This document shows positions 5,596 to 53,495 of a stretch of DNA of 64,000 bases, piece after piece. Position numbers and translations under genes: made by a program. Numbering within the stretch: position 1 is the stretch's first letter; each line of letters begins with the position of its first letter. The notes below the pieces were generated by a model. It did not search any database. It was not told the DNA's origin and worked only from the letters and a program-made list of their open reading frames with translations. Origin of the DNA: Candidatus Aminicenantales bacterium (lineage in GTDB: Bacteria > Acidobacteriota > Aminicenantia > Aminicenantales > Saccharicenantaceae); contig JBEKVN010000013.1 of the NCBI GenBank assembly GCA_049513915.1, forward strand, positions 78,265 through 142,264. The letters are read 5' to 3'.

Positions 5596-5677
5596 TCTAT
5601 TTCGGTGACACACAACTAAATACACTAATTAGGGACCTGTGCCTATTTCGGTAATTAGTTGTGTGTCACCGAAATTG
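5596..5677. repeat. AT-rich palindromic intergenic element, family A copy 1
   Basis: Perfect 20-bp inverted arms TTTCGGTGACACACAACTAA (5600-5619) and TTAGTTGTGTGTCACCGAAA (5655-5674), plus an internal direct repeat CTATTTCGG. A second copy lies at 21895-21975. GC is far below the window average. Confidence 0.6.
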
Positions 5678-5693
5678 AAAGCTGCCCGGCCGA

Positions 5694-12716: not shown

Positions 12717-15437
12717 ATGTCTCATCCAACCAGTCTCCGAAAGGCCGTCGCTCCGGCGGCCACGTTGGTTATTTTCCTGAGCTTTGCGATTCTGAGCCCG
12801 GCCGCCGCCCCCGGCGCCGAAATGAAGAAGGCCGACAAGGCCAACTATGAGCTGGCCGCGCGCTTTACCTCGGCCAAGGTCGGGAAGCTCGTCTTCGACA
12901 CTTCCGTCCAGGCCCACTGGCTCGAGACGGGCGACAGGTTCTGGTACAGCTGGGAAACGAGCAAGGGACGGTCGTTTTCCATCGTCGACCCCCTGCGCGC
13001 CACGAAGAGCCCGCTCTTCGACAACGCCCGGATGGCGGCCCTGCTGACCGGGATCGTCCTGACCCCGTATGACTCCCAGCACCTGCCCTTCCGGACCGTG
13101 AAATTCATCGACAAAGACACGGCCCTCCGCCTGGAGCTCGAGGTCCAGAAGGACTCGGACGTCCGCCTCGGGGACAAGATCGTCAAGGCCGGGGACATCG
13201 AGAAGAAGCGCGAAGACGCCAAGAAGGCCAAGGAGGAGGAGGCCAAGACGCAGGAGAAGAAAGACCAAGAGAAGAAGGAGCAGGACAAGAAGGACCTGGA
13301 AAAGAAGGAGCTGGATAAAAAGGACCAGGATAAAAAAGACGCCGATAAGGACAAGGCCAAGGAGCCCGAGAAAAAAACGACCACCCTCTATTTCGAGTAT
13401 CAGCTCGCCACGGGCACGCTGACGCTCCTCCCCGACTACGAGGCGCCGCCCAAGCGGCCCAAATGGGCGTCCGTTTCCCCCGATGAAAAAATCGTCATCT
13501 TCGCCCGCGGCTTCAACCTCTTCATGATGGACGCCGAGAACTTCAAGCTGGCCCAGAAAAAAGCCGACGACGCGGCCATCAAGGAGGTCCAGCTCACGAC
13601 CGACGGCGAGGAGCACTATTCCTACGCCCGTGACCTCAATGAGGAAGATAAGAAGGAGCTCCAGAAGGACGAGAAGGACCGCAAGGATTACCGCGTCCCG
13701 GCCGGCTATATCGTCTGGTCCAAGGACTCGAAAAAGTTCGCCTGTGTCCGCGAGGACGAACGCAAGGTGGGCGACCTCTGGGTTATTAACGTCCTGGCCA
13801 ACCCGCGCCCGACGCTCGAAACCTACCGCTACGCCATGCCGGGCGAGGAAAACCAGGCCCAGCCCGAGCTCCTCGTTTTCGATATCGCGAGCAAGGGCAA
13901 GGTCAAGATCAAGGCCGACGGCTTCAAGGACCAGACCCTGGGGGTCGAGACAGCGCCCCGCCGCAACGTGGACCGCGAGAAGGACTTTCCGCCTCCGTCC
14001 CAGTGGCTGAGCGACACGTCGGACAAGCTCTATTTCGGGCGCCAGAGCCGGGACCTCCACAAGTATGACGTCTGCGTCGCCGACACGGCGACCGGCGACG
14101 TGAAGGTCTTGATCGAGGAGCGCCTGAATACCTATATCGACGTCGAGTCCCTCCGCCTTGTCAACGGCGGCAAAGAAATGGTCTGGTGGTCCGAGCGCGA
14201 CGGCTGGGGCCATTACTACCTCTATGACGGCGACGGCAAGCTCAAGTCGCAGATCACTTCCGGCGAGTTCACCTGCCAGGGGATCGAGGGCGTCGACGAG
14301 AAGACCCGCGTCCTCTACTTCAACGCCTGCGGCCGCGAGCCGAGCGAGGACCCCTACTTTTTCCACCTCTACCGGGTCAACCTGGACGGCACGGGGCTCC
14401 GGCTCCTCAACCCCGGCGACGCCAATCACGGGGCCGACGCCGACGACAACCTGCGCGTGTTCATTGACACGTTCTCGCGCGTCAACACGGCCCCGGCCTC
14501 GGAGCTGCGGGACATGATGGGGAACGTCGTCCTCAAGCTCGAAACGACGGACACGGGCGCTCTTGTCGAGGCCGGCTACAAGTTCCCCGAGCCGTTCAAG
14601 GTCAAGGCCGACGACGGCATCACCGATCTCTACGGCGTCATGTACAAACCCTTCGACTTCGACCCCGCCGTGAAGTATCCGATCATCGCTTACGTCTATC
14701 CGGGCCCCCAGACCGAGAGCGTAACCAAGACCTTCTCGCCCCGGAACGGCAACGTCGCCCTGGCCCAGCTCGGGTTCATCGTCATCGAAGTCGGCAACCG
14801 CGGCGGCAACCCCATGCGCTCGAAGTGGTACCACAACTACGGCTATGGCAACCTCCGCGACTACGGCCTGGCCGACAAGAAGCGGGCCATCGAGGAGCTG
14901 GGCATCAGGTACCCCTATATCGACGCCGACCGGGTCGGCATCTACGGCCACTCGGGCGGCGGTTTCATGACGGCCGCAGCCCTGCTCGTCTATCCCGATT
15001 TCTTCAAGGTCGGCGTGTCCTCGTCCGGAAACCACGAGAACAACATCTACAACCGCTGGTGGAGCGAAAAGCATCACGGCGTCAAGGAAGTCACGGACAA
15101 GGAAGGGAACATCAAGTTCGAGTACAGCATCGAGAAGAACTCCGAGATCGCCAAGAACCTCAAGGGCCACCTCCTGCTCACGACGGGGGACATGGACAAC
15201 AACGTCCACCCGGGGAACACCATCCGGCTGGCCAACGCCCTGATCAAGGCCAATAAGCGCTTCGACTTCTTCCTCTTCCCGGGCCAGCGCCACGGCTACG
15301 GCGACATGAACGACTACTGGTTCTGGATCCGGGCCGACTACTTCGCCAAGTACCTGCTCGGCGATTTCTCCCAGACCGTCGACCTCATCGAACTGCAGAA
15401 GGAGAAAGAGCAAACGGGGGACAAGAAGGGACGGTAG
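12717..15437 (+). CDS. dipeptidyl peptidase IV (S9B prolyl oligopeptidase family) with Lys/Glu-rich insert
   Basis: Signal peptide. DPP4-type N-terminal propeller and a C-terminal alpha/beta hydrolase with catalytic GHSGGG serine motif, later Asp and His (DNNVHP). A 60-aa K/E/D-rich low-complexity insert lies at aa 161-220. Confidence 0.85.
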   Translation: MSHPTSLRKAVAPAATLVIFLSFAILSPAAAPGAEMKKADKANYELAARFTSAKVGKLVFDTSVQAHWLETGDRFWYSWETSKGRSFSIVDPLRATKSPLFDNARMAALLTGIVLTPYDSQHLPFRTVKFIDKDTALRLELEVQKDSDVRLGDKIVKAGDIEKKREDAKKAKEEEAKTQEKKDQEKKEQDKKDLEKKELDKKDQDKKDADKDKAKEPEKKTTTLYFEYQLATGTLTLLPDYEAPPKRPKWASVSPDEKIVIFARGFNLFMMDAENFKLAQKKADDAAIKEVQLTTDGEEHYSYARDLNEEDKKELQKDEKDRKDYRVPAGYIVWSKDSKKFACVREDERKVGDLWVINVLANPRPTLETYRYAMPGEENQAQPELLVFDIASKGKVKIKADGFKDQTLGVETAPRRNVDREKDFPPPSQWLSDTSDKLYFGRQSRDLHKYDVCVADTATGDVKVLIEERLNTYIDVESLRLVNGGKEMVWWSERDGWGHYYLYDGDGKLKSQITSGEFTCQGIEGVDEKTRVLYFNACGREPSEDPYFFHLYRVNLDGTGLRLLNPGDANHGADADDNLRVFIDTFSRVNTAPASELRDMMGNVVLKLETTDTGALVEAGYKFPEPFKVKADDGITDLYGVMYKPFDFDPAVKYPIIAYVYPGPQTESVTKTFSPRNGNVALAQLGFIVIEVGNRGGNPMRSKWYHNYGYGNLRDYGLADKKRAIEELGIRYPYIDADRVGIYGHSGGGFMTAAALLVYPDFFKVGVSSSGNHENNIYNRWWSEKHHGVKEVTDKEGNIKFEYSIEKNSEIAKNLKGHLLLTTGDMDNNVHPGNTIRLANALIKANKRFDFFLFPGQRHGYGDMNDYWFWIRADYFAKYLLGDFSQTVDLIELQKEKEQTGDKKGR

Positions 15438-21894: not shown

Positions 21895-21975
21895 ATAACG
21901 GTGACACATAACTAAATACACTAAATAGGGATATGCGTCTATTTCGGTAATGAGTTATATGTCACCGAAATCAAC
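21895..21975. repeat. AT-rich palindromic intergenic element, family A copy 2
   Basis: CGGTGACACATAACTAAATACACTAAATAGGGA...CTATTTCGGTAATGAGTTATATGTCACCGAAAT. Roughly 85% identical to 5596-5677 with the same arm/core layout. Confidence 0.6.
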
Positions 21976-39189: not shown

Positions 39190-40899
39190 TCAGAACGAGA
39201 ATTCGATGCCGGCGAAGAGCCGCTCTTCGAGGCTGCTGACCCGGACCCCCGGGAGCCTCCCCCACCTGTGGATGCCTTCGAAGTTCGCGAAAAGCTCGAA
39301 CGGCATCCGGGGCAATTTCCACCCGGCCCCGAGGAGATAGCGGAACCGGTTGTCGTCGCCGTGGGCGGGGTTCGTGACCTCTCCCGGGAACCGACCCCTG
39401 GAGTCGGCGGAACCCCAGGCGCCGAAGCTCGCCAGGGCACGGGCCCGGAAACCTCCCCACTCCAGGGTCGACTGTCCGGAGACCGTGCCGCCGAAGCCGT
39501 AATAATATCCGTAGTATATGAGCGTCTCTTTCATGCCCTTGACCGTGTCATCGGGAAGGGTGTGGTGGAGCTCGGTATAGGCGTTGTACGCGAGCGAATT
39601 GACCAGTCCGAAATCAAGATATGCCGCGGCCACCGTCCTGAGCTTCCACCCTCGGCGGAAGATCGTCCAATCGACGACCGGGCCCGCGATGTGAAGGAGC
39701 GCCAGCTTGTCGGTAAAATTCCGCGGGATCTCGAGATGGATTTCGGCGCCCAGCTGGAAGGGATCCACGGGCACCTGCTTGATATCGTAATAGTCGATAG
39801 GCCTCTTCCTGTAGTATTCGAAACAAGACCCGAGCCCGACGGTCAGGCTGTAACCCTCGAGGTTGTCGTCGATCTTCTGCCGGTGGGAACCCCAGGGCGA
39901 GGCTTCGAAGGAGAAATTCGTTTCGTCGGTCATCCCGTTGCGGACCGCCTGGTCGAAGGTGATGGAACTGAAATAAGTGTCCTTGACGGTTTCCCGGATG
40001 TCGCCGGGCTTCCCGTATTCCGGGAGCCCGAGGATCTGCGTGTGAACCGCGTAGTACGCGGCGGTTTCGGCGGGCCGGCCGGCCGCGGAGAGGCTCCGGA
40101 CTCCGGCCACCAAGCCGAAGTCGTGCCATCCCGGCTGCACATAGTCCCGGGCCCCCTGGTCCTTGCGGTCCAGCCAGTGGTTGATCTTAAGAACGGGGTT
40201 CATAAAGCTCAGGACCTGGTAGAAAAAGCCGGATTGGTGGGCCAGGTAGTCTCCGACCTGGTACCAGGGCTCGCCGATCGCGAATCCGCCGAGTCCGGTC
40301 ATGAACTGATCGTTGATGGAGATGACTTCCTTCCACTCAATAACGGACTCCCAAAACGTCGAGGTGACGGCCGACATCATCCAGGAATACAGCCAGGACA
40401 TGTGGCTCGTCCGGGCGAACTCATAATAGATCCCGCCGGCAAGGCTGTGAGTCCAGTTGAGCTTGAAGTTGTTCGAGTCGAAGCGCCAGCCGGCGAGGAA
40501 AAGGAGCCTGTTGACTTGGCTGTCCAGGGTTAATTTGAACTGCCAGTCCTCCCGGAAGTGGCTTTTATACCGGATCCAGTAGCTTCCGCCAGAAAAGCCG
40601 ACAAAGATGCCGAGCTCGATCCAGGCCCGCCCCGGCTTGGGATTTTGAAGGATGTCGGGCGCGGCCGGCGCGGACGGCTCTCCCATTTTGCGGAAACCGG
40701 GCAGGACGAAAGAGCGGCTCCAGTCGGCGGGCGCCTCGGAAACTTCAAAGCCTGACGGCGCCGCCAAGCTGAAATGCACCCTTTCCGCGGGCCCACCCGG
40801 GCCGTCCTGCGAGCCCGCGGCGGCAGGCCGCGCACAAAGCCAAATCAGACAAACAGCGGCCAGTCCGGCGGCCAAAGGGTTCGGTCTCTTGCTCTGCAC
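39190..40899 (-). CDS. outer-membrane beta-barrel / secreted protein of unknown function
   Basis: Signal peptide MQSKRPNPLAAGLAAVCLIWLCARPAAA. Aromatic-rich alternating pattern with C-terminal GIEFSF. Confidence 0.5.
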   Translation of the reverse strand: MQSKRPNPLAAGLAAVCLIWLCARPAAAGSQDGPGGPAERVHFSLAAPSGFEVSEAPADWSRSFVLPGFRKMGEPSAPAAPDILQNPKPGRAWIELGIFVGFSGGSYWIRYKSHFREDWQFKLTLDSQVNRLLFLAGWRFDSNNFKLNWTHSLAGGIYYEFARTSHMSWLYSWMMSAVTSTFWESVIEWKEVISINDQFMTGLGGFAIGEPWYQVGDYLAHQSGFFYQVLSFMNPVLKINHWLDRKDQGARDYVQPGWHDFGLVAGVRSLSAAGRPAETAAYYAVHTQILGLPEYGKPGDIRETVKDTYFSSITFDQAVRNGMTDETNFSFEASPWGSHRQKIDDNLEGYSLTVGLGSCFEYYRKRPIDYYDIKQVPVDPFQLGAEIHLEIPRNFTDKLALLHIAGPVVDWTIFRRGWKLRTVAAAYLDFGLVNSLAYNAYTELHHTLPDDTVKGMKETLIYYGYYYGFGGTVSGQSTLEWGGFRARALASFGAWGSADSRGRFPGEVTNPAHGDDNRFRYLLGAGWKLPRMPFELFANFEGIHRWGRLPGVRVSSLEERLFAGIEFSF

Positions 40900-40990
40900 C
40901 TCGGGTTCCCTCTTTTTTAAAAGCTAACATAGGCCTTTCCGAGCATTACGTCAAGACCGGCGGGCGCCCTCCGGGGGGAAATCGGCCTTG

Positions 40991-41091
40991 AAGAATGGGG
41001 ACGAAGAATGGGGACGGTCCTGGTTTTCCATCCGCGGCCCAACCGGGATTTCTCTCGCCTATCCTAGAAAACCAGGACCGTCCCCATTTTC
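40991..41091. repeat. family B hairpin element copy 1 (25-bp inverted arms GAATGGGGACGGTCCTGGTTTTC / GAAAACCAGGACCGTCCCCATTTTC)
   Basis: Arms at 41003-41028 and 41067-41091 around a 38-nt loop. A partial tandem duplicate GAAGAATGGGGAC precedes the left arm. Confidence 0.6.
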
Positions 41092-41226
41092 GTGGTCCGC
41101 GTCACCCTGAAGCTCCACGGACTTGCGTCCGTGGAACCCCAAGAACGGGATTGACAGGCCCCGGACAGCGGCGTTATCATAAGCGGCGTGATTGTCGGGG
41201 GTTTTTCAAATCAACGGAGGTAAAGA

Positions 41227-42748: not shown

Positions 42749-44185
42749 ATGAATAACGCGAAGACCATCCAGAAAGCGATCGCCGGGCTTTGCCTCCTGG
42801 CCGTTCTCTTCGGGGCCGCCTACGCACAGAAAGCGCCGAAGGACAAGTTCGCCTTCGGGCCCCTTCACCCGATCAAGATGCCCAAGGTCGTGGAGGCCGA
42901 ACTGCCGAACGGCCTCAAGCTCTTCCTCGTCGAGGACCCCGAGTACCCGACGATCGACCTGTACGCCATGGTGCGCACCGGCGCCGTTTTCGAGCCGGCG
43001 GACAAGACCGGGCTGGCCTCCATCACGGGGTCCGTCCTGAGGACGGGTGGCACGCAGACGAGGACTGGCGATCAGATCGATAAGGAGCTCGAGACTCTGG
43101 CCGCGACCGTGGAGACCGGCATCGGGGACATGTCCGGGTCTCTCCGGGTGTCCGTGCTCAAGGGGGATTTTGACAAGGCCGTGGCCATCCTCGCCGACAT
43201 CCTGACCCATCCCGCCTTCCGGGAGGACAAGATCAACCTGGCCAAGATCCAGCAGAAGTCCATGATCTCCCGCCGCAACGACGACATCGGCGGCATCACC
43301 TACCGCGAGTTCGACCGGCTGATCTACGGGAAGGACAGCCCGTACGCCCGGCAGATCGAATACGCGACGATCGACGCCATCACCCGTCAGGACCTGGTGG
43401 ATTTCTACAACGCGTATTTCCATCCCAACAACACCCTGATGGCGGTCTGGGGAGATTTCAAGGCGGATGACATGGCCGCCAAGTTGAAAACAGCCCTGGG
43501 AGCATGGACCAAGGGCCGGCCGTCGGCCGCGCCCTGGCCCAAGGTCAATTATGAATTCAAGTCGACGGTCAACTATATCGAGAAGCCCGACGTCAACCAG
43601 GCCAACGTCATGCTCGGCCACATCGGCGGCCTCATGAACAACCCCGACCTCGCCGCCCTGAACGTCATGAACCAGATCCTGTCCTTCGAGCGCATGTTCA
43701 AGCGGGTCCGGACGGACGAGGGCCTGGCCTACAGCGTCTGGGGGAGCTACGGGGCCTCCTACGTCTATCCCGGGACCTTCAACTGCGGCGTCCAGACCAA
43801 GTCCCAGTCCACGGTCTACGCCATCAACATCATGCTCCAGGAGCTGAAGAAGATCACCGAGCGGGAAGTGACGGACGAAGAGCTGGCCAAGGCCAAAGAC
43901 GGCTATCTCAATTCCTACGTTTTCGACTTCGAGAGCAAGGCCCAGATCGTCAACCGCCTCATGTCCCTGGCGTATTACGGCTATCCCCGGGATTTCGCCG
44001 AGAAGCTCAAGCAGGGCGTCGAGAAAGTCACCAAGGCCGACGTTCTCCGGGTGGCCAAAAAATATATCCAACCGGGCCAGGTCCAGATCCTCGTCGTCGG
44101 GAAGAAAGAGGATTTCGACAAGCCGCTGTCCACGCTGGGCGCCGTGAACGTCATCGACATCACGATCCCCGGCCCGAAGAAATAG
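42749..44185 (+). CDS. M16 family peptidase, non-catalytic partner subunit
   Basis: M16 fold without HxxEH. Signal peptide. Confidence 0.75.
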   Translation: MNNAKTIQKAIAGLCLLAVLFGAAYAQKAPKDKFAFGPLHPIKMPKVVEAELPNGLKLFLVEDPEYPTIDLYAMVRTGAVFEPADKTGLASITGSVLRTGGTQTRTGDQIDKELETLAATVETGIGDMSGSLRVSVLKGDFDKAVAILADILTHPAFREDKINLAKIQQKSMISRRNDDIGGITYREFDRLIYGKDSPYARQIEYATIDAITRQDLVDFYNAYFHPNNTLMAVWGDFKADDMAAKLKTALGAWTKGRPSAAPWPKVNYEFKSTVNYIEKPDVNQANVMLGHIGGLMNNPDLAALNVMNQILSFERMFKRVRTDEGLAYSVWGSYGASYVYPGTFNCGVQTKSQSTVYAINIMLQELKKITEREVTDEELAKAKDGYLNSYVFDFESKAQIVNRLMSLAYYGYPRDFAEKLKQGVEKVTKADVLRVAKKYIQPGQVQILVVGKKEDFDKPLSTLGAVNVIDITIPGPKK

Positions 44186-44963
44186 GCCTGTTCGCCGGCT
44201 GGAATTCGGGGCAAGAGGGCGGCTTGACACCGAGATAGACAACCGCGATGCCGCCGGACAGCCGGCGGAAGAGGACGTCGTCGAAGCCTGCCTCCCTGAT
44301 ATTCTCTGCTATTTCCTCTGGCGCCGGGAAGACCCGGATGGACTCGGCCAAATAGCGAAAGGATCCTCCCCCGCGGCAGATCAACCGTCCCGCGAGCGGC
44401 ATCCAGCAAAAAGAGTAGGCGTGATAAAGGGCGCGGAAAAACCGGTTAACGGGGAGGGAGAACTCGATGACCATCAGTTTTCCTCCCGGCTTGAGGACGC
44501 GCAGGAACTCGCCGAGGCCTTTTGCGGGATGGGCCAGGTTGCGGAGGCCGAATCCGATGGTCACGGCGTCGAAAGTCCCGCCGGGAAAACTCAGATCCTC
44601 GGTATCGCCCTGGACGAAGCCGATCGGGGCCCTGGCCGCCGGCCCGCGGGCCCGGCTCTCGCCGACCTCCATCATGGCCCGGCTGAAATCATAGACCACG
44701 ACCTGGCCGGCGGGACCGGCCGGGCGGGCGACGAGCCTGGCCAAGCCCGCCGTTCCGCCGCAGGCATCCAGAACAAAGTCCCCTTCCCCGACGCCCAGGA
44801 GGCTCACCGCGTTCTTCCGCCAGCGGGAATCGAGTCCGAAACTCAGCACCGTATCGGCGAAGTCGTAGGCCCGGGCGATTTCGTCGAACTCGGCCCGGAC
44901 GAGGCGCTTTTTTTCGGCCGGAGTGACCTCCCGGTATCCGAAAGGGACTGTTTCTTTGGTCAA
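44160..44963 (-). CDS. ubiE: class I SAM-dependent methyltransferase, UbiE/MenG (demethylmenaquinone / ubiquinone C-methyltransferase) family
   Basis: VLDACGGTAG motif I (written in read direction). Family length and motif spacing. 3-prime end overlaps the convergent M16 gene. Confidence 0.7.
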   Translation of the reverse strand: MTKETVPFGYREVTPAEKKRLVRAEFDEIARAYDFADTVLSFGLDSRWRKNAVSLLGVGEGDFVLDACGGTAGLARLVARPAGPAGQVVVYDFSRAMMEVGESRARGPAARAPIGFVQGDTEDLSFPGGTFDAVTIGFGLRNLAHPAKGLGEFLRVLKPGGKLMVIEFSLPVNRFFRALYHAYSFCWMPLAGRLICRGGGSFRYLAESIRVFPAPEEIAENIREAGFDDVLFRRLSGGIAVVYLGVKPPSCPEFQPANRPISSGRGS

Positions 44964-45112
44964 CGCATCTCCCGGCCGCAGTTTCCACGGTCCTGCACTG
45001 GGTCCTAATATAGAGGATTACCGGCCCCGACTAAAGACTTTTCGTTCTTCGGCGATCAACCCGGGAGCCGGCCTTGAATTCGCCCGGGGGCTCTGCTATA
45101 AGCAGGGGGTGG

Positions 45113-45202
45113 GGAAAATGGGGACGGTCCTGTTTTTCCGGCTGCATCCCAAGCGAGACTTCTCTTGCTTATATAAGGAAAAACAGGACCGTCCCCATTT
45201 TC
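45113..45202. repeat. family B hairpin element copy 2 (arms GGAAAATGGGGACGGTCCTGTTTTTCC / GGAAAAACAGGACCGTCCCCATTTTC)
   Basis: Arms at 45113-45139 and 45177-45202 around a 37-nt loop similar to copy 1. Preceded by TTGAAT-17-TATAAG at 45075-45103. Confidence 0.6.
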
Positions 45203-45267
45203 AGTCCCCATTTGCAGACCCCGGCTCCGGGGATACGCCCGCTCCGCAGCGCGAAAGGGAGGATCCC

Positions 45268-48075
45268 ATGAAACAGCGCAATCCATCCCGTCAGGCGGGG
45301 ATCTTCGCCTTTTACGCCTTCATTGCTCTTCTCCTAGTCGCGCCCCTGCCGGTCCGGGCCGCGGCCAATGACCTCCAGTATCTCGAGCTCGCGACGCGCG
45401 ACGGCCTCGCCGTGCGCTCTTACCAGGTCTCGAGCGGCGAAATGTTCATCCTTCCCTCCTCCCGGCCGCTCTTTTCGGTCAGGGTCGACAACGTCCTCGT
45501 CTCGACGCTTGACGCGAAGGTCAGCCAGGAGCAGGACGTCATCGCCGCCCGTCTGACCGACGGAGTCACGGGACGCTTCCGGGTCGGCCGCCGGTCCGAC
45601 CGGGGCTGGAGGATCGACATCGTATTCGAAAACGGCTCCAAGAAGCCCGTCGTCCTCGAGAACATCGTCCCCTTCGGCGAAGACCCGCGGGACATCTTCA
45701 TCACCGGCTACGGGCCGCCGGCCCTGGCCCGGGCGGGGCTCTTCCGCCCGGGGAAAAAGCCGGTCAGCGTGATCCTCCCCGATAACGCTTGGGAGCTGGG
45801 CTACGGAGCGGTCGAGCGGCCCGGAGGTTATTCTCTCTGCGGGCTGGCCCGGCGCGGCAAGGGCGCAAAAGCCGAACTCCGGCGCTACCGGACGGTCCTC
45901 GAACCCGGCGGAACCGTTGAATACACGATCTACGCCGACGTCTACTCCGGCGAGTGGCAGGACGGGCTCCGGGCCATGTTCCACGGACGCCGGCTGTTCG
46001 ACCTCGAGAAGTTCGACCGCGCCCTCTACGACCGTCCGGACCTCGCCTGGGTCAGGAAGAGTTTCGTCATGGTGCTGCAGATGGCCTGGGACCGGGAGTT
46101 TTTTGACCGGACGAGCGGCCGCTACGAAATCGAGCCGTTCCTCGAAAAGAGCCGCGCGGTCCTCGGCGGTTACGACGTTTTCGGCATCTGGCCGACCTGG
46201 CCCCGGCTCGGGCTCGACGACCGGAACCAGTGGGACCTCTATCGCGATCTCCCGGGCGGTCTCCGGGGACTGCGTGAGCTCGCCGATCTCGCCCACAAGC
46301 GAGGCACGAAGTTCTTCGTCGCCTACAATCCCTGGGACACGGACACGCGGCGGGAAAAACCCTTCGAAGGGATGGCCGGCCTCATCCGCGATCTCGATGC
46401 CGACGGAGTCGTTCTCGACACCATGGGCGGGTCCACCAAAGAGGCCCAGAAGGCTGCCGACAGCGTCAAACCCGGGGTCATTATGTACAGCGAGGGCATG
46501 CCGGTTCCCGCGGACATGCCCGATATCGTCGCAAGCCGCGTCCACGACGCGCTTGTGCTATCGCCCGTCCTCAACCTCAACCGTCTCATCGAGCCGGAGT
46601 TTACGATCTTCCGGGTCGCCCAGCTCGCCGACGGAGAGCTCCATCGCGAGGTGGCCGTCGCCTTCTTCAACGGCTACGGCGTCGAGCTCAACGCCTTCAA
46701 GGCCGGACGTCCGGACTGGGTCGCGCCGGACCTGCGGACCCTGGGCCGGGCGGCCATGATCCTGAGGGCCAACGCGTCCGTGCTGAACACGCCGGCGTGG
46801 ACGCCGCTCGTCCGGACGCTCGAAGACGGCGTCTGGGTCAACGAATGGCCGGGGGGCGGCAAGACGATTTACACGATCTATTCGGAAGAACCGGCGGGAT
46901 TCGAAGGTCCCCTCTTCTCCGCGACGGCCGGCGGCGGCAGCCATTTCGTCGACCTCTGGAACCACGCCGAGGTCGAGCCCATCGTCGTCGACGGCGAGAG
47001 CTCGGTGCCGGCCTCGCTCCCGCCCTACCCCGCCTCCGCTTCGGGGACGCGGCGCGAAGGCGCCATCGGCTGCGTTGGCCGCTTCGAGAAAGCATTGGAA
47101 GCCGCAATCGACGGGGACGTGCTCAGGCTGAAGTCCTCGCGCGGGGACAGGATCCTGGTCTGGCGGGGAAATCCCTCCTACGAAAAAAGGCCCGAATCGC
47201 TCGAGGCCGGAGCATGGGCCCGGCCCCTCGCGGGGCTGCTCGGCTCCTACCGGGGAAAAATCGTCATCCAGCTCATGGATGGGACCGAGCTGCTGGACGA
47301 GCGCGTGCTCACCATCGAGCCGGGGACACCGCTTAGGACGAGCCCGGCCGAGAAGACGGAGCCCGCGGCCACCGCTCCTCCGGGGATGGTTGATGTCCCC
47401 GGCGCCGACTATGAATTCCGCGTGAACAAGGCCGATACGTTCATTCCCCTGCCGGATTTTTCGAGGCCGCGCAAGGTCGCGGTGGATCGTTTCTTCATGG
47501 ACGCGCGGCCCGTGACCAACCTGGATTTCAAGCAGTTTCTGGATGCCACGGGATACAGGCCCGCCGACGCCGCGAACTTCCTCAAGCACTGGACGGGCGG
47601 GAAGATCCCGGCCGGCCAGGCCGATTATCCGGTCGTCTACGTGAGCTTCGAAGACGCGAAAGCTTACGCCAAGTGGGCCGGAAAGCGCCTTCCCACGGAG
47701 ATCGAGTGGCAGTATGCCGCCCAGGGCACGGACGGCCGGACCTGGCCGTGGGGGAAGACGTTCACGAAAGGGGCGTGCAATGACGGCCTCGGCCGGGCCA
47801 CGCCTGTCAACGCATTCCCCCGGGGGAAAAGCCCGTTCGGGGTCCTCGACCTCGTCGGGAACGTCTGGCAGATGACGGCCGACGTTTACGATACGTCAAG
47901 CTATACCTACGTTATCATCCGCGGCGGCAGCTTCTGGGACCCGACTTCGAGTTCCTGGTACCTGAAGGGCGGCCCGCAGCCCTTGGACGAGCACCAGGTG
48001 CTCCTGCTCGTGTCCCCGGGCTTCGACCGCAGCCCGAACGTCGGATTCCGCTGTGTCAAGGACGCGACCCGCTGA
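45268..48075 (+). CDS. secreted multidomain protein: N-terminal glycoside-hydrolase-like TIM barrel plus C-terminal FGE-sulfatase (SUMF1/formylglycine-generating enzyme-like) domain
   Basis: Signal peptide at MKQRNPSRQAGIFAFYAFIALLLVAPLPVRAAA; ORF-track start 44923 rejected. C-terminal 300 aa has FGE-sulfatase hallmarks (VSFEDAKAYAKWAGKRLPTEIEWQYAA, GNVWQMT, RGGSFWD, NVGFRCV). Confidence 0.65.
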   Translation: MKQRNPSRQAGIFAFYAFIALLLVAPLPVRAAANDLQYLELATRDGLAVRSYQVSSGEMFILPSSRPLFSVRVDNVLVSTLDAKVSQEQDVIAARLTDGVTGRFRVGRRSDRGWRIDIVFENGSKKPVVLENIVPFGEDPRDIFITGYGPPALARAGLFRPGKKPVSVILPDNAWELGYGAVERPGGYSLCGLARRGKGAKAELRRYRTVLEPGGTVEYTIYADVYSGEWQDGLRAMFHGRRLFDLEKFDRALYDRPDLAWVRKSFVMVLQMAWDREFFDRTSGRYEIEPFLEKSRAVLGGYDVFGIWPTWPRLGLDDRNQWDLYRDLPGGLRGLRELADLAHKRGTKFFVAYNPWDTDTRREKPFEGMAGLIRDLDADGVVLDTMGGSTKEAQKAADSVKPGVIMYSEGMPVPADMPDIVASRVHDALVLSPVLNLNRLIEPEFTIFRVAQLADGELHREVAVAFFNGYGVELNAFKAGRPDWVAPDLRTLGRAAMILRANASVLNTPAWTPLVRTLEDGVWVNEWPGGGKTIYTIYSEEPAGFEGPLFSATAGGGSHFVDLWNHAEVEPIVVDGESSVPASLPPYPASASGTRREGAIGCVGRFEKALEAAIDGDVLRLKSSRGDRILVWRGNPSYEKRPESLEAGAWARPLAGLLGSYRGKIVIQLMDGTELLDERVLTIEPGTPLRTSPAEKTEPAATAPPGMVDVPGADYEFRVNKADTFIPLPDFSRPRKVAVDRFFMDARPVTNLDFKQFLDATGYRPADAANFLKHWTGGKIPAGQADYPVVYVSFEDAKAYAKWAGKRLPTEIEWQYAAQGTDGRTWPWGKTFTKGACNDGLGRATPVNAFPRGKSPFGVLDLVGNVWQMTADVYDTSSYTYVIIRGGSFWDPTSSSWYLKGGPQPLDEHQVLLLVSPGFDRSPNVGFRCVKDATR

Positions 48076-52053: not shown

Positions 52054-52061
52054 TTTTTTTT

Positions 52062-52245
52062 ACATCAGGAGAGGCTCGATCCTAACCGATCGGACCCGGC
52101 AACCTGGGGCGGACACCCGAGGTGCTCACTCGCCAGCGGCGAGGATGTGGTCGCGAAAGCGAACGCGGCAACCAAGTGTCCAACGGCCGACAAACCCGCC
52201 TTCCTGATGATAGAGAGGTGGGTTTTTTTGCGGCCGCGCATTGAC
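52062..52245 (+). promoter_or_regulatory. SAM riboswitch (SAM-I clan: SAM-I/SAM-IV-like) in metK 5-prime leader
   Basis: P1 strands CATCAGGAG (52064-52072) and CTTCCTGATG (52200-52209). Conserved core AGGAGAGGC...GGACCCGGCAACC resembles SAM-I ...AGAGAGGCGGAGGGA...GCCCGGCAACC. Followed by a hairpin plus T7 tract. metK lies directly downstream. Confidence 0.55.
52191..52228 (+). terminator. putative riboswitch expression-platform terminator (ACCCGCC...GGTGGGT + TTTTTTT)
   Basis: 7-bp stem with one G-U around a 16-nt loop, overlapping the P1 3-prime strand, followed by a seven-T run at 52222-52228. Confidence 0.3.
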
Positions 52246-52310: not shown

Positions 52311-53495
52311 ATGGCCACCGATTTCGTTTTCACTTCGGAATCCGTGTCCGAAGGCCATCCCGACAAGATGGCGGATCAGATCTCCGACGCGGTGCTCGAC
52401 GCGATCCTGGCGCAGGACCCCGACGGCAAAGTCGCCTGCGAAACGATGCTCACGAAGAACGTGGCGATCGTGGCCGGCGAGCTGGGCACCGACGCCCGCA
52501 TCGACCCGGTGCAAATCGTGCGCGACGTCGCCCGGGAGATCGGGTACACGGACGCTCATTGCGGCTTCGACCACAAGACCTGCAAGGTCTTCACGTATCT
52601 CGGCCGGCAGTCGGCCGACATCGCCCGCGGCGTCGACCGGAGCGGCGGCGAGATCGGCGCCGGCGACCAAGGCCTGATGTTCGGATACGCCACCGTCGAG
52701 ACGCCCGAGCTCATGCCCCTGCCGATCCGCCTGGCCCACCGGCTCGTCGAAAAGCAGGCGGCGGTCCGCAAGGCCGGACTCCTGCCCTGGCTCCGGCCCG
52801 ACGCCAAGTCCCAGGTGTCCGTCCGGTACAAAAACAAGCGGCCCGTGGCCGTCGAGAAGGTCGTCCTGTCGACCCAGCATGACAGCGAGGTCAAGGACTC
52901 GACGATCCGCGAAGGTGTCATCGCCGAGATCATCGAAAAAGTCATCCCGGCCGAACTCCGGCGGGGGAACGTCGAATATCTTATCAACCCGACGGGCCGG
53001 TTCGTCATCGGCGGCCCCGTCGGCGACACCGGTCTGACCGGCCGGAAGATCATCGTCGATACCTACGGCGGCAGCTGTCCCCACGGCGGCGGCGCTTTTT
53101 CCGGCAAGGACCCGACCAAGGTTGACCGCTCGGCGGCCTACGCGGCCCGCTATATCGCCAAGAATATCGTGGCCGCGGGCCTGGCCGACCACTGCACGGT
53201 CCAGCTGGCCTACGCCATCGGCGTCATCGAGCCGTTCTCTCTCATGGTCAACATCCACAGCGGCGGCCGAATCAGCGAGCGGCAGATCGAAGAGGCCGTT
53301 CGCAAGATTTTCCGGCTGACGCCCAAGGGCATGATCGAGATGCTCGACCTCCGGCGGCCCATCTACCAGAAGACGGCGGCCTACGGTCACTTCGGGCGCG
53401 AGCTCCCGGAATTCACCTGGGAGCGGACCGACAAGGTTCAGGAGTTGCGGGCCTATTTCGGCTACGAGAGCCTGGACGCGCTCAGCCGATCCTGA
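52311..53495 (+). CDS. metK: S-adenosylmethionine synthetase
   Basis: Hallmark motifs [25 protein letters not shown] and [32 protein letters not shown]. Confidence 0.95.

Follow-up and report, generated by a model that had tools for sequence, protein, structure and literature searches.

Two short repetitive extragenic palindromic (REP) units in inverted orientation, together with the spacer between them, form the long hairpin known as a REPIN in Pseudomonas and E. coli, where these elements are associated with a Y1 (HUH) enzyme, the REP-associated tyrosine transposase or RAYT (PMC3116915, PMC3337134). REPs have been sorted into GTAG-tagged and CGTC-tagged superfamilies in a study that also described the TIRYT genes, i.e., Y1-transposase genes flanked by inverted repeats that share the motif GGGGWSAS and are also found scattered in the form of dimers or clusters (Di Nocera, De Gregorio and Rocco 2013, PMC3733652). 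The same study recognized one Y1 enzyme group that is specific to Acidobacteria. The present analysis concerns a hairpin-forming element located between two divergent genes of a Candidatus Aminicenantales bacterium, within a 64,000-nucleotide stretch of contig JBEKVN010000013.1 (positions 78,265 to 142,264; hereafter the window). The element, designated copy 2 (Table 1), is probably a non-autonomous element resembling a REPIN or a dimer of terminal inverted repeats (TIRs), moved in trans by a transposase of the RAYT/TIRYT type.

The hairpin reported in the preliminary description is real. Its arms had been called perfect complements over 27 bases: 26 of 26 positions pair between the arms listed in Table 1, and the 27th base, G45113, stands unpaired opposite A45203. 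The loop sequence given there (GGCTGCATCCCAAGCGAGACTTCTCTTGCTTATATAA) is right, and its likeness to the loop of copy 1, an element of the same family lying 4.1 kb away in the same orientation, is borne out by 77% identity over 65 nt with the loop included. The partial repeat noticed on the 3′ side of the right arm is present as well. As RNA, the segment 45105–45215 folds at −65.2 kcal/mol, whereas dinucleotide shuffles give −33.3 ± 3.5 kcal/mol (z = −9.1), and none of 200 reached the native value. Folded as single-stranded DNA, either strand of copy 2 is about as stable as the other (−38.0 and −36.6 kcal/mol; DNA z = −8.7). With up to three mismatches allowed, the arm occurs four times in the 64-kb window, compared with 0.00 in shuffles, and the only exact matches to its 11-base core in the window are found in these four arms. 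Copy 2 therefore has the layout of a REPIN, namely an inverted pair of units around a short spacer that folds into a single hairpin.

Copies of the element are numerous in Aminicenantes. An exact-pattern scan of JGI metagenomes revealed 32 loci with the same arms, about 20 of which belong to the same subfamily, with a G+C content of 0.55–0.65, the arm consensus GAAAAATGGGGACGGTCCTGTTTTTCC, and loops that align with those of the window. Fourteen exact-pattern copies are located on 11 large contigs of a single metagenome, Ga0187886, which suggests tens of copies per genome. The copies examined are all intergenic according to a crude gene call based on open reading frames (ORFs) and GC3, in agreement with the many extragenic copies typical of REPINs. 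They occupy divergent, convergent, and tandem arrangements without orientation bias (in tandem settings, four run with the genes and four against them), and the genes beside them are functionally unrelated to one another. In an orthologous quartet (L131, L139, L147, and L153), the element lies 22 nt past the stop codon of the same 142-aa gene, and the loop of L147 (L147:1652–1728) is inverted relative to those of the other three, indicating that the arms recombine in situ and that the orientation of the element carries no meaning. No direct repeat or target-site duplication flanks any of about 25 copies, and none is seen when filled and empty sites are compared, although sequence divergence makes the position of the junctions imprecise. 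In Aminicenantes-type copies, the stem hardly varies, with one position alternating between T-A and G-C. Furthermore, the outer 13 nt (N7 + GGGGAC) are iterated in tandem beside the two copies of the window and beside roughly one in four of the others (Table 1); in copy 1, this outer segment, GAAGAATGGGGAC, is duplicated at 40990–41002. The iteration may mark the cleavage or joining point of the enzyme, or slippage at the base of the hairpin.

The sites of both window copies could be compared with those of three relatives (L120, L121/L122, and L155), whose UbiE proteins are 81–82% identical to that of the window. At the position of copy 2, the promoter, ribosome-binding site (RBS), and start codon are retained in both L155 and L120. 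The element itself is missing from L155 and is reduced in L120 to GGGGAAAATGGGGACGCTCC, a 20-nt remnant of the start of the left arm that carries one change and is joined directly to the RBS region. The intergenic region at the position of copy 1 measures 150 bp in L121 and shows no sign of the element, and a small unrelated hairpin takes its place in L120. Two further loci with a 568-aa neighbor (L135 and L151) were considered as orthologues of copy 1 and proved not to be orthologous. Judging from these alignments, the element is gained and lost, being absent from the orthologous sites at both window positions, and copy 2 is an insertion rather than a conserved leader.

The core is not restricted to Aminicenantes. 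A scan of one genome per species (596 Gb) with the pattern GGGGACGGTCC-N40-70-GGACCGTCCCC yielded at least 117 loci in about 60 assemblies from at least six phylum-level groups, compared with a chance expectation of about one match (22-base pattern, 31 spacings, uniform base composition assumed). Hosts among the matches listed include Lachnospiraceae and other Clostridia, Syntrophomonas, and Desulfosporosinus (Bacillota); Coriobacteriia; Myxococcota; unclassified Deltaproteobacteria; Planctomycetia (Planctomycetota); Aminicenantes and other Acidobacteria (Acidobacteriota); and, among Gammaproteobacteria, Legionella steigerwaltii and one metagenome-assembled genome (MAG). The G+C content of the listed loci ranges from 29% to 74%. 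A T follows the core directly on its 3′ side in 89% of arms and is succeeded by a T/A-rich run; beyond the core, each lineage has a sequence of its own. Conservation is highest inside the arm, with GGGGACGGTCC in the center, and not at its tip. In many lineages, the flanks on either side of the core pair with each other, the unit being an imperfect palindrome of 29–33 nt with two G.T positions; over 210 representative arms, mirror positions 8–12 are paired in 53–69% of cases, compared with 39–48% in controls. Units occur as singlets, inverted doublets, and clusters, including head-to-tail ones, and often lie at contig ends. In Legionella, four copies are found within 8 kb, each 5–21 nt from the 3′ end of a gene; the possibility that this cluster surrounds a mobile gene was considered, and no such gene is present. 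Three aldolase genes in two phyla each have a copy on their 3′ side. BLAST searches of plasmids with the window element and the Legionella variant returned no match, a core-pattern scan of viral contigs gave 0 matches, and literature searches with 10–11-mers of the core retrieved only primers and unrelated constructs.

A candidate partner enzyme is encoded beside these repeats in relatives. The gut Clostridia contig L114, recovered by the pattern scan, carries a Y1_Tnp gene (PF01797), found by tblastn, that is flanked upstream by GATGTGTCATC-GGGGACGGTCC-TTTTTGACACAT and, directly after its stop codon, by the inverted copy ATGTGTCAAAAA-GGACCGTCCC-TAATGACACATC. The contig also has a dispersed doublet at 103–174, the arms of which are identical to the gene-flanking units (GGGGACGGTCC and GGGACGGTCC). 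Three other Y1 proteins of the same family score 80.5–85.6 bits against NF047646, their best NCBIfam model (REP-associated tyrosine transposase; cutoff 80), and all match PF01797. When the Y1 proteins are aligned, neither the HUH motif nor the catalytic Tyr varies, and the closest solved structure to these proteins is that of E. coli TnpArep (4ER8). The two transposase queries were consensus sequences, and only the real database proteins retrieved serve as evidence. Clustering of all ORFs near the repeats revealed no recurrent neighbor, only housekeeping genes and spurious read-through ORFs; this clustering, which used HUH/Tyr regular expressions, overlooked the gene of L114, which was detected by tblastn with real Y1 sequences.

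The same arrangement recurs in Syntrophomonas and its relatives. In one Syntrophomonas species, a 253-aa Y1_Tnp gene is present at a single conserved chromosomal site in many samples (L167–L172), with AGAACAGGGGACGGTTCTTCGTTT 64 nt before its ATG and an inverted copy right after its stop codon. Three further genes, from Syntrophomonas STD2_151, a second Syntrophomonas MAG, and a Syntrophomonadaceae MAG (L173–L179), have the flanking repeats TGACAAGGGGACGGGGTTGTTGACAAC. The inverted units at the Syntrophomonas and Syntrophomonadaceae genes read GGGGACGGTTC or GGGGACGGGG, and GGGGACGG-type repeats bound four genes besides that of L114. The STD2_151 MAG also carries dispersed GGGGACGGTCC hairpins (L031, L038, and L077). 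At the Syntrophomonadaceae locus L176, the outer half-site is iterated four times beside the inverted repeat on the 3′ side of the RAYT-like gene, a tandem iteration of the kind seen at the window copies. The RAYT-like gene with its inverted repeats (2441) directly follows a truncated IS256-family ORF (2003–2437; PF00872, 144 aa) at this locus, suggesting that the gene-plus-repeats unit was inserted as a whole. In addition, Nitrospirota and Desulfobacterota-type loci contain Y1_Tnp genes bounded by GGGGTCAGGTCT... repeats.

Compared with the REPIN/REP-RAYT systems (PMC3116915, PMC3337134), the elements described here share the two inverted short units that, with their spacer, form a long hairpin; the probable tens or more of copies per genome, all of them extragenic among those examined; the coexistence of singlets, doublets, and clusters; the lack of target duplication; and, in L114, a Y1/HUH gene flanked by its own units, with TnpArep as the closest structure. 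Several features are nevertheless distinct. The GTAG tetranucleotide at the foot of REPIN units is found neither within nor beside either arm of copy 2, and the conserved GGGGACGGTCC is placed at the center or apex of the unit. The same 11-mer is common to several phyla, whereas classical REPs are species-specific, and the hosts are mostly anaerobic Bacillota, Myxococcota, Planctomycetota, and Acidobacteriota, whereas those of REPIN/REP-RAYT systems are Gammaproteobacteria.

The resemblance to the TIRtrons of PMC3733652 is also close. GGGG(A/T)(C/G)-rich inverted repeats flank Y1 genes in both cases, an observation reproduced here on L160 and L161 (GGGGTCAGGTC) and on L167–L179, and the combination of bracketing repeats with dispersed dimers or clusters that characterizes TIRYT repeats is found in the relatives L114, L167–L172, and L173–L179. 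The inverted repeat of the TIRtron L161 starts at GGGG, whereas that of the present element starts 6–7 nt further out. The 11-mer core, Aminicenantes, and Clostridia are not listed in the text and supplements of PMC3733652. CGTC-tagged REPs, which include Neisseria dRS3 and Rickettsia RPE-4 and RPE-6, have a terminal unpaired CGTC, an 8–9-bp stem starting from AT, a loop of 4–5 nt, and a CCA tail, and no dedicated transposase is known for them (PMC3733652). They resemble the present element as short palindromic extragenic repeats that form head-to-head dimers, and CGTC occurs within GGACCGTCCCC; membership was rejected on layout, as the CGTC of the present element is mid-arm and paired and the other features are absent. 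Subterminal hairpins and miniature derivatives of IS200/IS605 insertion sequences (ISs) likewise involve the Y1/HUH superfamily, recognition of folded single-stranded ends, and no target duplication. However, the two ends of IS200/IS605 are different hairpins, whereas the element here is an inverted pair, and the Y1 enzymes found here fit the IS200 model less well than the REP-associated one.

Several observations weigh against assigning copy 2 to such a system. A tblastn search covering 1.16 Mb detected no Y1-transposase gene in the window or in the Aminicenantes-type loci compared. The L114 protein, for which NF047646 is the best NCBIfam match, scores 52.7 bits, below the cutoff of 80. In the STD2_151 MAG, the repeats on either side of the single transposase gene recovered (GGGGACGGGGTTG...) and the arms of the dispersed hairpins (GGGGACGGTCCTTTTG...) differ past the first 8 nt. 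The core GGGGACGG fits seven of the eight positions of GGGGWSAS, with G for A at position 7, whereas the GGGGACAG variants in related arms fit the motif fully. Single arms of the window fold at −4.1 and −2.5 kcal/mol, no better than shuffles; in contrast, the Firmicutes singlet L074 folds at −8.6 kcal/mol (z = −3.4). The window arms are thus weakly palindromic alone and less REP-like than the Firmicutes units. Finally, the collection of copies by exact match inflates their apparent conservation, and with a stem that is almost invariant under such sampling, covariation says little.

In the proposed mechanism, the element is a 90–100-nt interspersed repeat made of two inverted units of ~27 nt around a short spacer, and the center of the unit, GGGGACGGTCC(T), would be the most likely recognition site of a REP-associated-type Y1 (HUH) tyrosine transposase (RAYT/TIRYT). 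We infer that the same kind of enzyme is present in the source genome and moved this copy. Its gene would be present in a single copy at another locus, and the enzyme would act in trans on the element as a folded single strand, which, by analogy with the IS200/IS605 and RAYT literature, would be recognized, cleaved, and inserted without target-site duplication. Inverted units of the GAAAATGGGGACGGTCC type would then be the expected bracket of the partner gene. In the source genome, the copy would have landed immediately past the promoter of the gene for a secreted protein with an FGE-sulfatase domain (hereafter the FGE gene), and any effect on that gene, such as stabilization of the 5′ end or an RNase III site, would be a by-product of the insertion and not the reason for the sequence. 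In bacterial mRNA decay, a very stable 5′-terminal stem-loop can stabilize the message or create an RNase III site, and an extension of this to the FGE gene is speculative. Co-option of this 5′-terminal copy as a determinant of FGE transcript stability is a weaker possibility.

The 304-bp region from which the UbiE/MenG-type gene and the FGE gene diverge contains copy 2, and the distance between the end of its right arm and the ATG of the FGE gene is 65 nt, as stated earlier. The promoter-like hexamers TTGAAT-17-TATAAG, previously placed at 45075–45103, are present one base to the left (Table 1). They were not called by a consensus promoter scan because position 6 of the −10 hexamer is G. Yet the window, L120, and L155 share CCTTGAATTC...GGCTCTGCTATAAGCA without a single difference, as they do the RBS and ATG, and the promoter of the FGE gene is therefore probably real. 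The hairpin starts about 8–11 nt past the −10 hexamer; with a transcription start site (TSS) ~7 nt past the −10, the transcript would begin with the hairpin. The FGE-gene mRNA thus probably starts with a very stable stem-loop, the transcription of which is predicted from the promoter position. The near-palindrome GCTCTGCTATAAGCAG (window 45090–45105), also invariant in the window, L120, and L155, overlaps the −10 hexamer and could be an operator instead of, or besides, a promoter element.

The repeat has also affected annotation. The public call for the FGE-protein gene starts at an ATG at 45118, inside the left arm, and gives a protein of 985 aa, the reading frame staying open through the repeat. 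The ~50 extra N-terminal residues (45118–45267) are probably an annotation artefact caused by the repeat, because the relatives start at the conserved GGGAGG-N5-ATG that corresponds to 45268 here. One repeat insertion has thereby probably misled public gene calling, adding 50 codons to the FGE-domain gene.

Table 1. Positions of the two copies of the element, their sub-features, and the neighboring genes and promoters (window coordinates unless a locus is named)
Feature	Position	Strand	Details
Copy 2, left arm	45114..45139	.	GAAAATGGGGACGGTCCTGTTTTTCC; core GGGGACGGTCC at 45120-45130; 26 nt, 100% complementary to 45177-45202
Copy 2, loop/spacer	45140..45176	+	37 nt; inner 8-bp hairpin at 45151-45170; homologous to Aminicenantes-type loops
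Copy 2, right arm	45177..45202	.	GGAAAAACAGGACCGTCCCCATTTTC; core complement at 45186-45196
Tandem partial repeat of the outer arm	45204..45215	.	GTCCCCATTTGC; pairs with GGGG 45111-45114 in the extended fold
Probable FGE-gene promoter	45074..45102	+	TTGAAT 45074-45079, 17-nt spacer, TATAAG 45097-45102
Gene for 935-aa secreted protein with C-terminal FGE-sulfatase domain	45268..48075	+	PF03781, 3.1e-39; ATG 45268 after GGGAGG
UbiE/MenG-type methyltransferase gene	44160..44963	-	PF01209, 1.5e-60; divergent neighbor
Copy 1 of the same element	41003..41092	+	Perfect 22-bp arms at 41007-41028 and 41067-41088; fold z = -6.8
M16 peptidase operon promoter	41151..41180	+	TTGACA-18-TATCAT; 11/12 consensus matches; downstream of copy 1
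Tandem outer-arm iteration	40990-41015; 45191-45215; L176:3263-3340		Also in L127, L134, L140, L141, and L151

Copy 1 is found in a comparable divergent region, between a DUF3943 gene (39190–40899, − strand) and a pair of M16 peptidase genes (from 41227). It sits 58 nt upstream of the −35 hexamer of the strong TTGACA-18-TATCAT promoter, which is conserved in L120 and L121, both without the element; the TSS at copy 1 is therefore expected downstream of the element. A start site downstream of the element in both copies had been named as the outcome that would refute a leader RNA, and the predicted start sites are divided, downstream for copy 1 and upstream for copy 2. Between copy 1 and the promoter, a 44-nt hairpin-containing insert, CTGAAGCTCCACGGACTTGCGTCCGTGGAACCCCAAGAACGGGA (window 41107–41150), abuts the −35 hexamer of the M16 operon. 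It is absent from L120 and L121, related copies adjoin GGGGACGGTCC elements in L126, L128, and L133, and its apex, GGAC-N4-GTCC, resembles the core GGAC-G-GTCC.

The preliminary description had raised a leader-RNA scenario. A dedicated leader would be a hairpin that evolved in the 5′ untranslated region (UTR) as a cis-regulatory RNA controlling the downstream gene, for example by attenuation or by protein or ligand binding. The location of copy 2 in a 5′ UTR is indeed plausible, as it begins ~11 nt past a conserved −10 hexamer and hence at the 5′ end of the FGE mRNA, and both window copies are oriented alike relative to their downstream + strand gene. A dedicated leader RNA throughout the family is, however, contradicted by the relatives, by copy 1, and by orientation. 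The comparison of orthologous loci that had been proposed as a check reveals FGE leaders without the hairpin in L155 and with only 20 nt of it in L120, and the conserved promoter of the operon next to copy 1 lies downstream of that copy. Other copies follow stop codons or lie between convergent genes, the loop orientation flips in situ, and the genes adjacent to the copies are unrelated to each other. The RBS of the FGE gene is not sequestered by the hairpin, and Rfam searches at the gathering threshold, covering the window, both intergenic regions, and 18 loci of other lineages, returned no family for it; at an E-value threshold, only spurious look-alikes of microRNA hairpins appeared. A dedicated leader RNA is thus highly improbable. 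A classical miniature inverted-repeat transposable element (MITE), i.e., a deletion derivative of an IS with a DDE transposase that moves by cut-and-paste through its terminal inverted repeats, would account for the 26-nt inverted repeats, the small size, the multiple intergenic copies, and the presence/absence polymorphism. It is nonetheless very unlikely: no copy examined has a target-site duplication, the strongest conservation is inside the arm and not at the tip, singlets and head-to-tail clusters occur, no DDE gene recurs beside the repeats, and, of all transposases, only a Y1/HUH enzyme was found between such units. Terminal repeats of the Tn3 and IS5 types were considered and likewise set aside, as the inverted repeat here extends beyond GGGG and no target duplication is present. 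A different miniature transposon of ~160 bp, inserted within a GGGGACGGTCC unit of a Lachnospiraceae MAG (L087:4944–5105), ends in the repeats GTTACTGTTCACAC, with GGTCCTTT as its 8-bp target duplication, and served as a positive control for MITE recognition.

A role in serving the host is compatible with a mobile origin: the element could be a co-opted REP-like sequence that acts as a bidirectional terminator or insulator, as a protector of mRNA ends, or as a site for nucleoid or topology proteins. The stem of the Aminicenantes subfamily is bracketed by runs of A4-6 and T4-7, as in a bidirectional terminator, the element follows the stop codon at 22 nt in all four genomes of the orthologous quartet, all four Legionella copies adjoin gene 3′ ends, and each of the three aldolase genes in two phyla has a copy on its 3′ side. 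A terminator or insulator role is accordingly possible for copies at gene ends. At copy 2, the A4 and T4 runs on either side of the stem take part in the pairing, and a terminator scan made no call there. Moreover, each window copy is located between the starts of two divergent genes, a setting that calls for no terminator, most other lineages have no T run after the stem, and the relatives manage without the element at both sites. As the explanation of copy 2, a host-serving function is therefore unlikely. The remaining alternative, a chance palindrome or an assembly artefact, has nothing in its favor except that the source is a metagenome assembly, and its probability is negligible: shuffles never match the fold energy or the arm count, an 84.6-kb ENA contig and a Logan contig, assembled independently, match the window sequence with 100% identity, and related copies are present in dozens of independent assemblies. 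Insertion of a REPIN- or TIR-dimer-like element remains the preferred explanation.

If copy 2 is an element of this type, its origin is ordinary, as the kind of repeat is known; what is worth following is the cross-phylum core and a RAYT clade outside Proteobacteria. To our knowledge, work on REP-type repeats and the domesticated tyrosine transposases that accompany them has been confined almost entirely to Proteobacteria. In the present data, this architecture, built on one 11-base core, is found in Aminicenantes, gut Clostridia, Syntrophomonas, Myxococcota, Planctomycetota, and Legionella; gene and repeat occur together in at least one case. If the pairing of enzyme and repeat is true, it would offer a cross-phylum system for testing how Y1 enzymes recognize folded DNA, and a marker for annotating such repeats in MAGs, where they interrupt assemblies and lead to spurious extensions of ORFs. 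A further proposal is more tentative, and we regard it as possible rather than probable: the GGGGACGGTCC units might define a third REP-like superfamily beside the GTAG and CGTC ones, with its own RAYT/TIRYT-type Y1 clade and a core identical across at least six phyla of mostly anaerobic hosts. Such a superfamily would represent a natural series of variable stems on a fixed apex with which to study how an enzyme reads folded DNA, and would raise the question of movement between phyla.

For the window itself, one candidate regulatory RNA is removed and two intergenic hairpins are flagged as repeat insertions. A second, unrelated family of hairpin repeats is represented at 5596–5678 and 21899–21971 by 73-nt copies that are 88% identical; their arms (ATTTCGGTGACACACAACTAA...) are 93% complementary, and a similar stretch occurs in the flank of L134. 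The coding stretch at 13197–13678 contains GAG/AAG-rich repeats with periods of 15 and 33 nt and would encode a low-complexity segment rich in Lys and Glu. Finally, a SAM-I/IV riboswitch at 52057–52185 scores 42.2 bits, compared with a gathering score of 41.1, and is located ~125 nt upstream of an S-adenosylmethionine synthetase gene (52311–53495, + strand; mapped from the L118 gene table).

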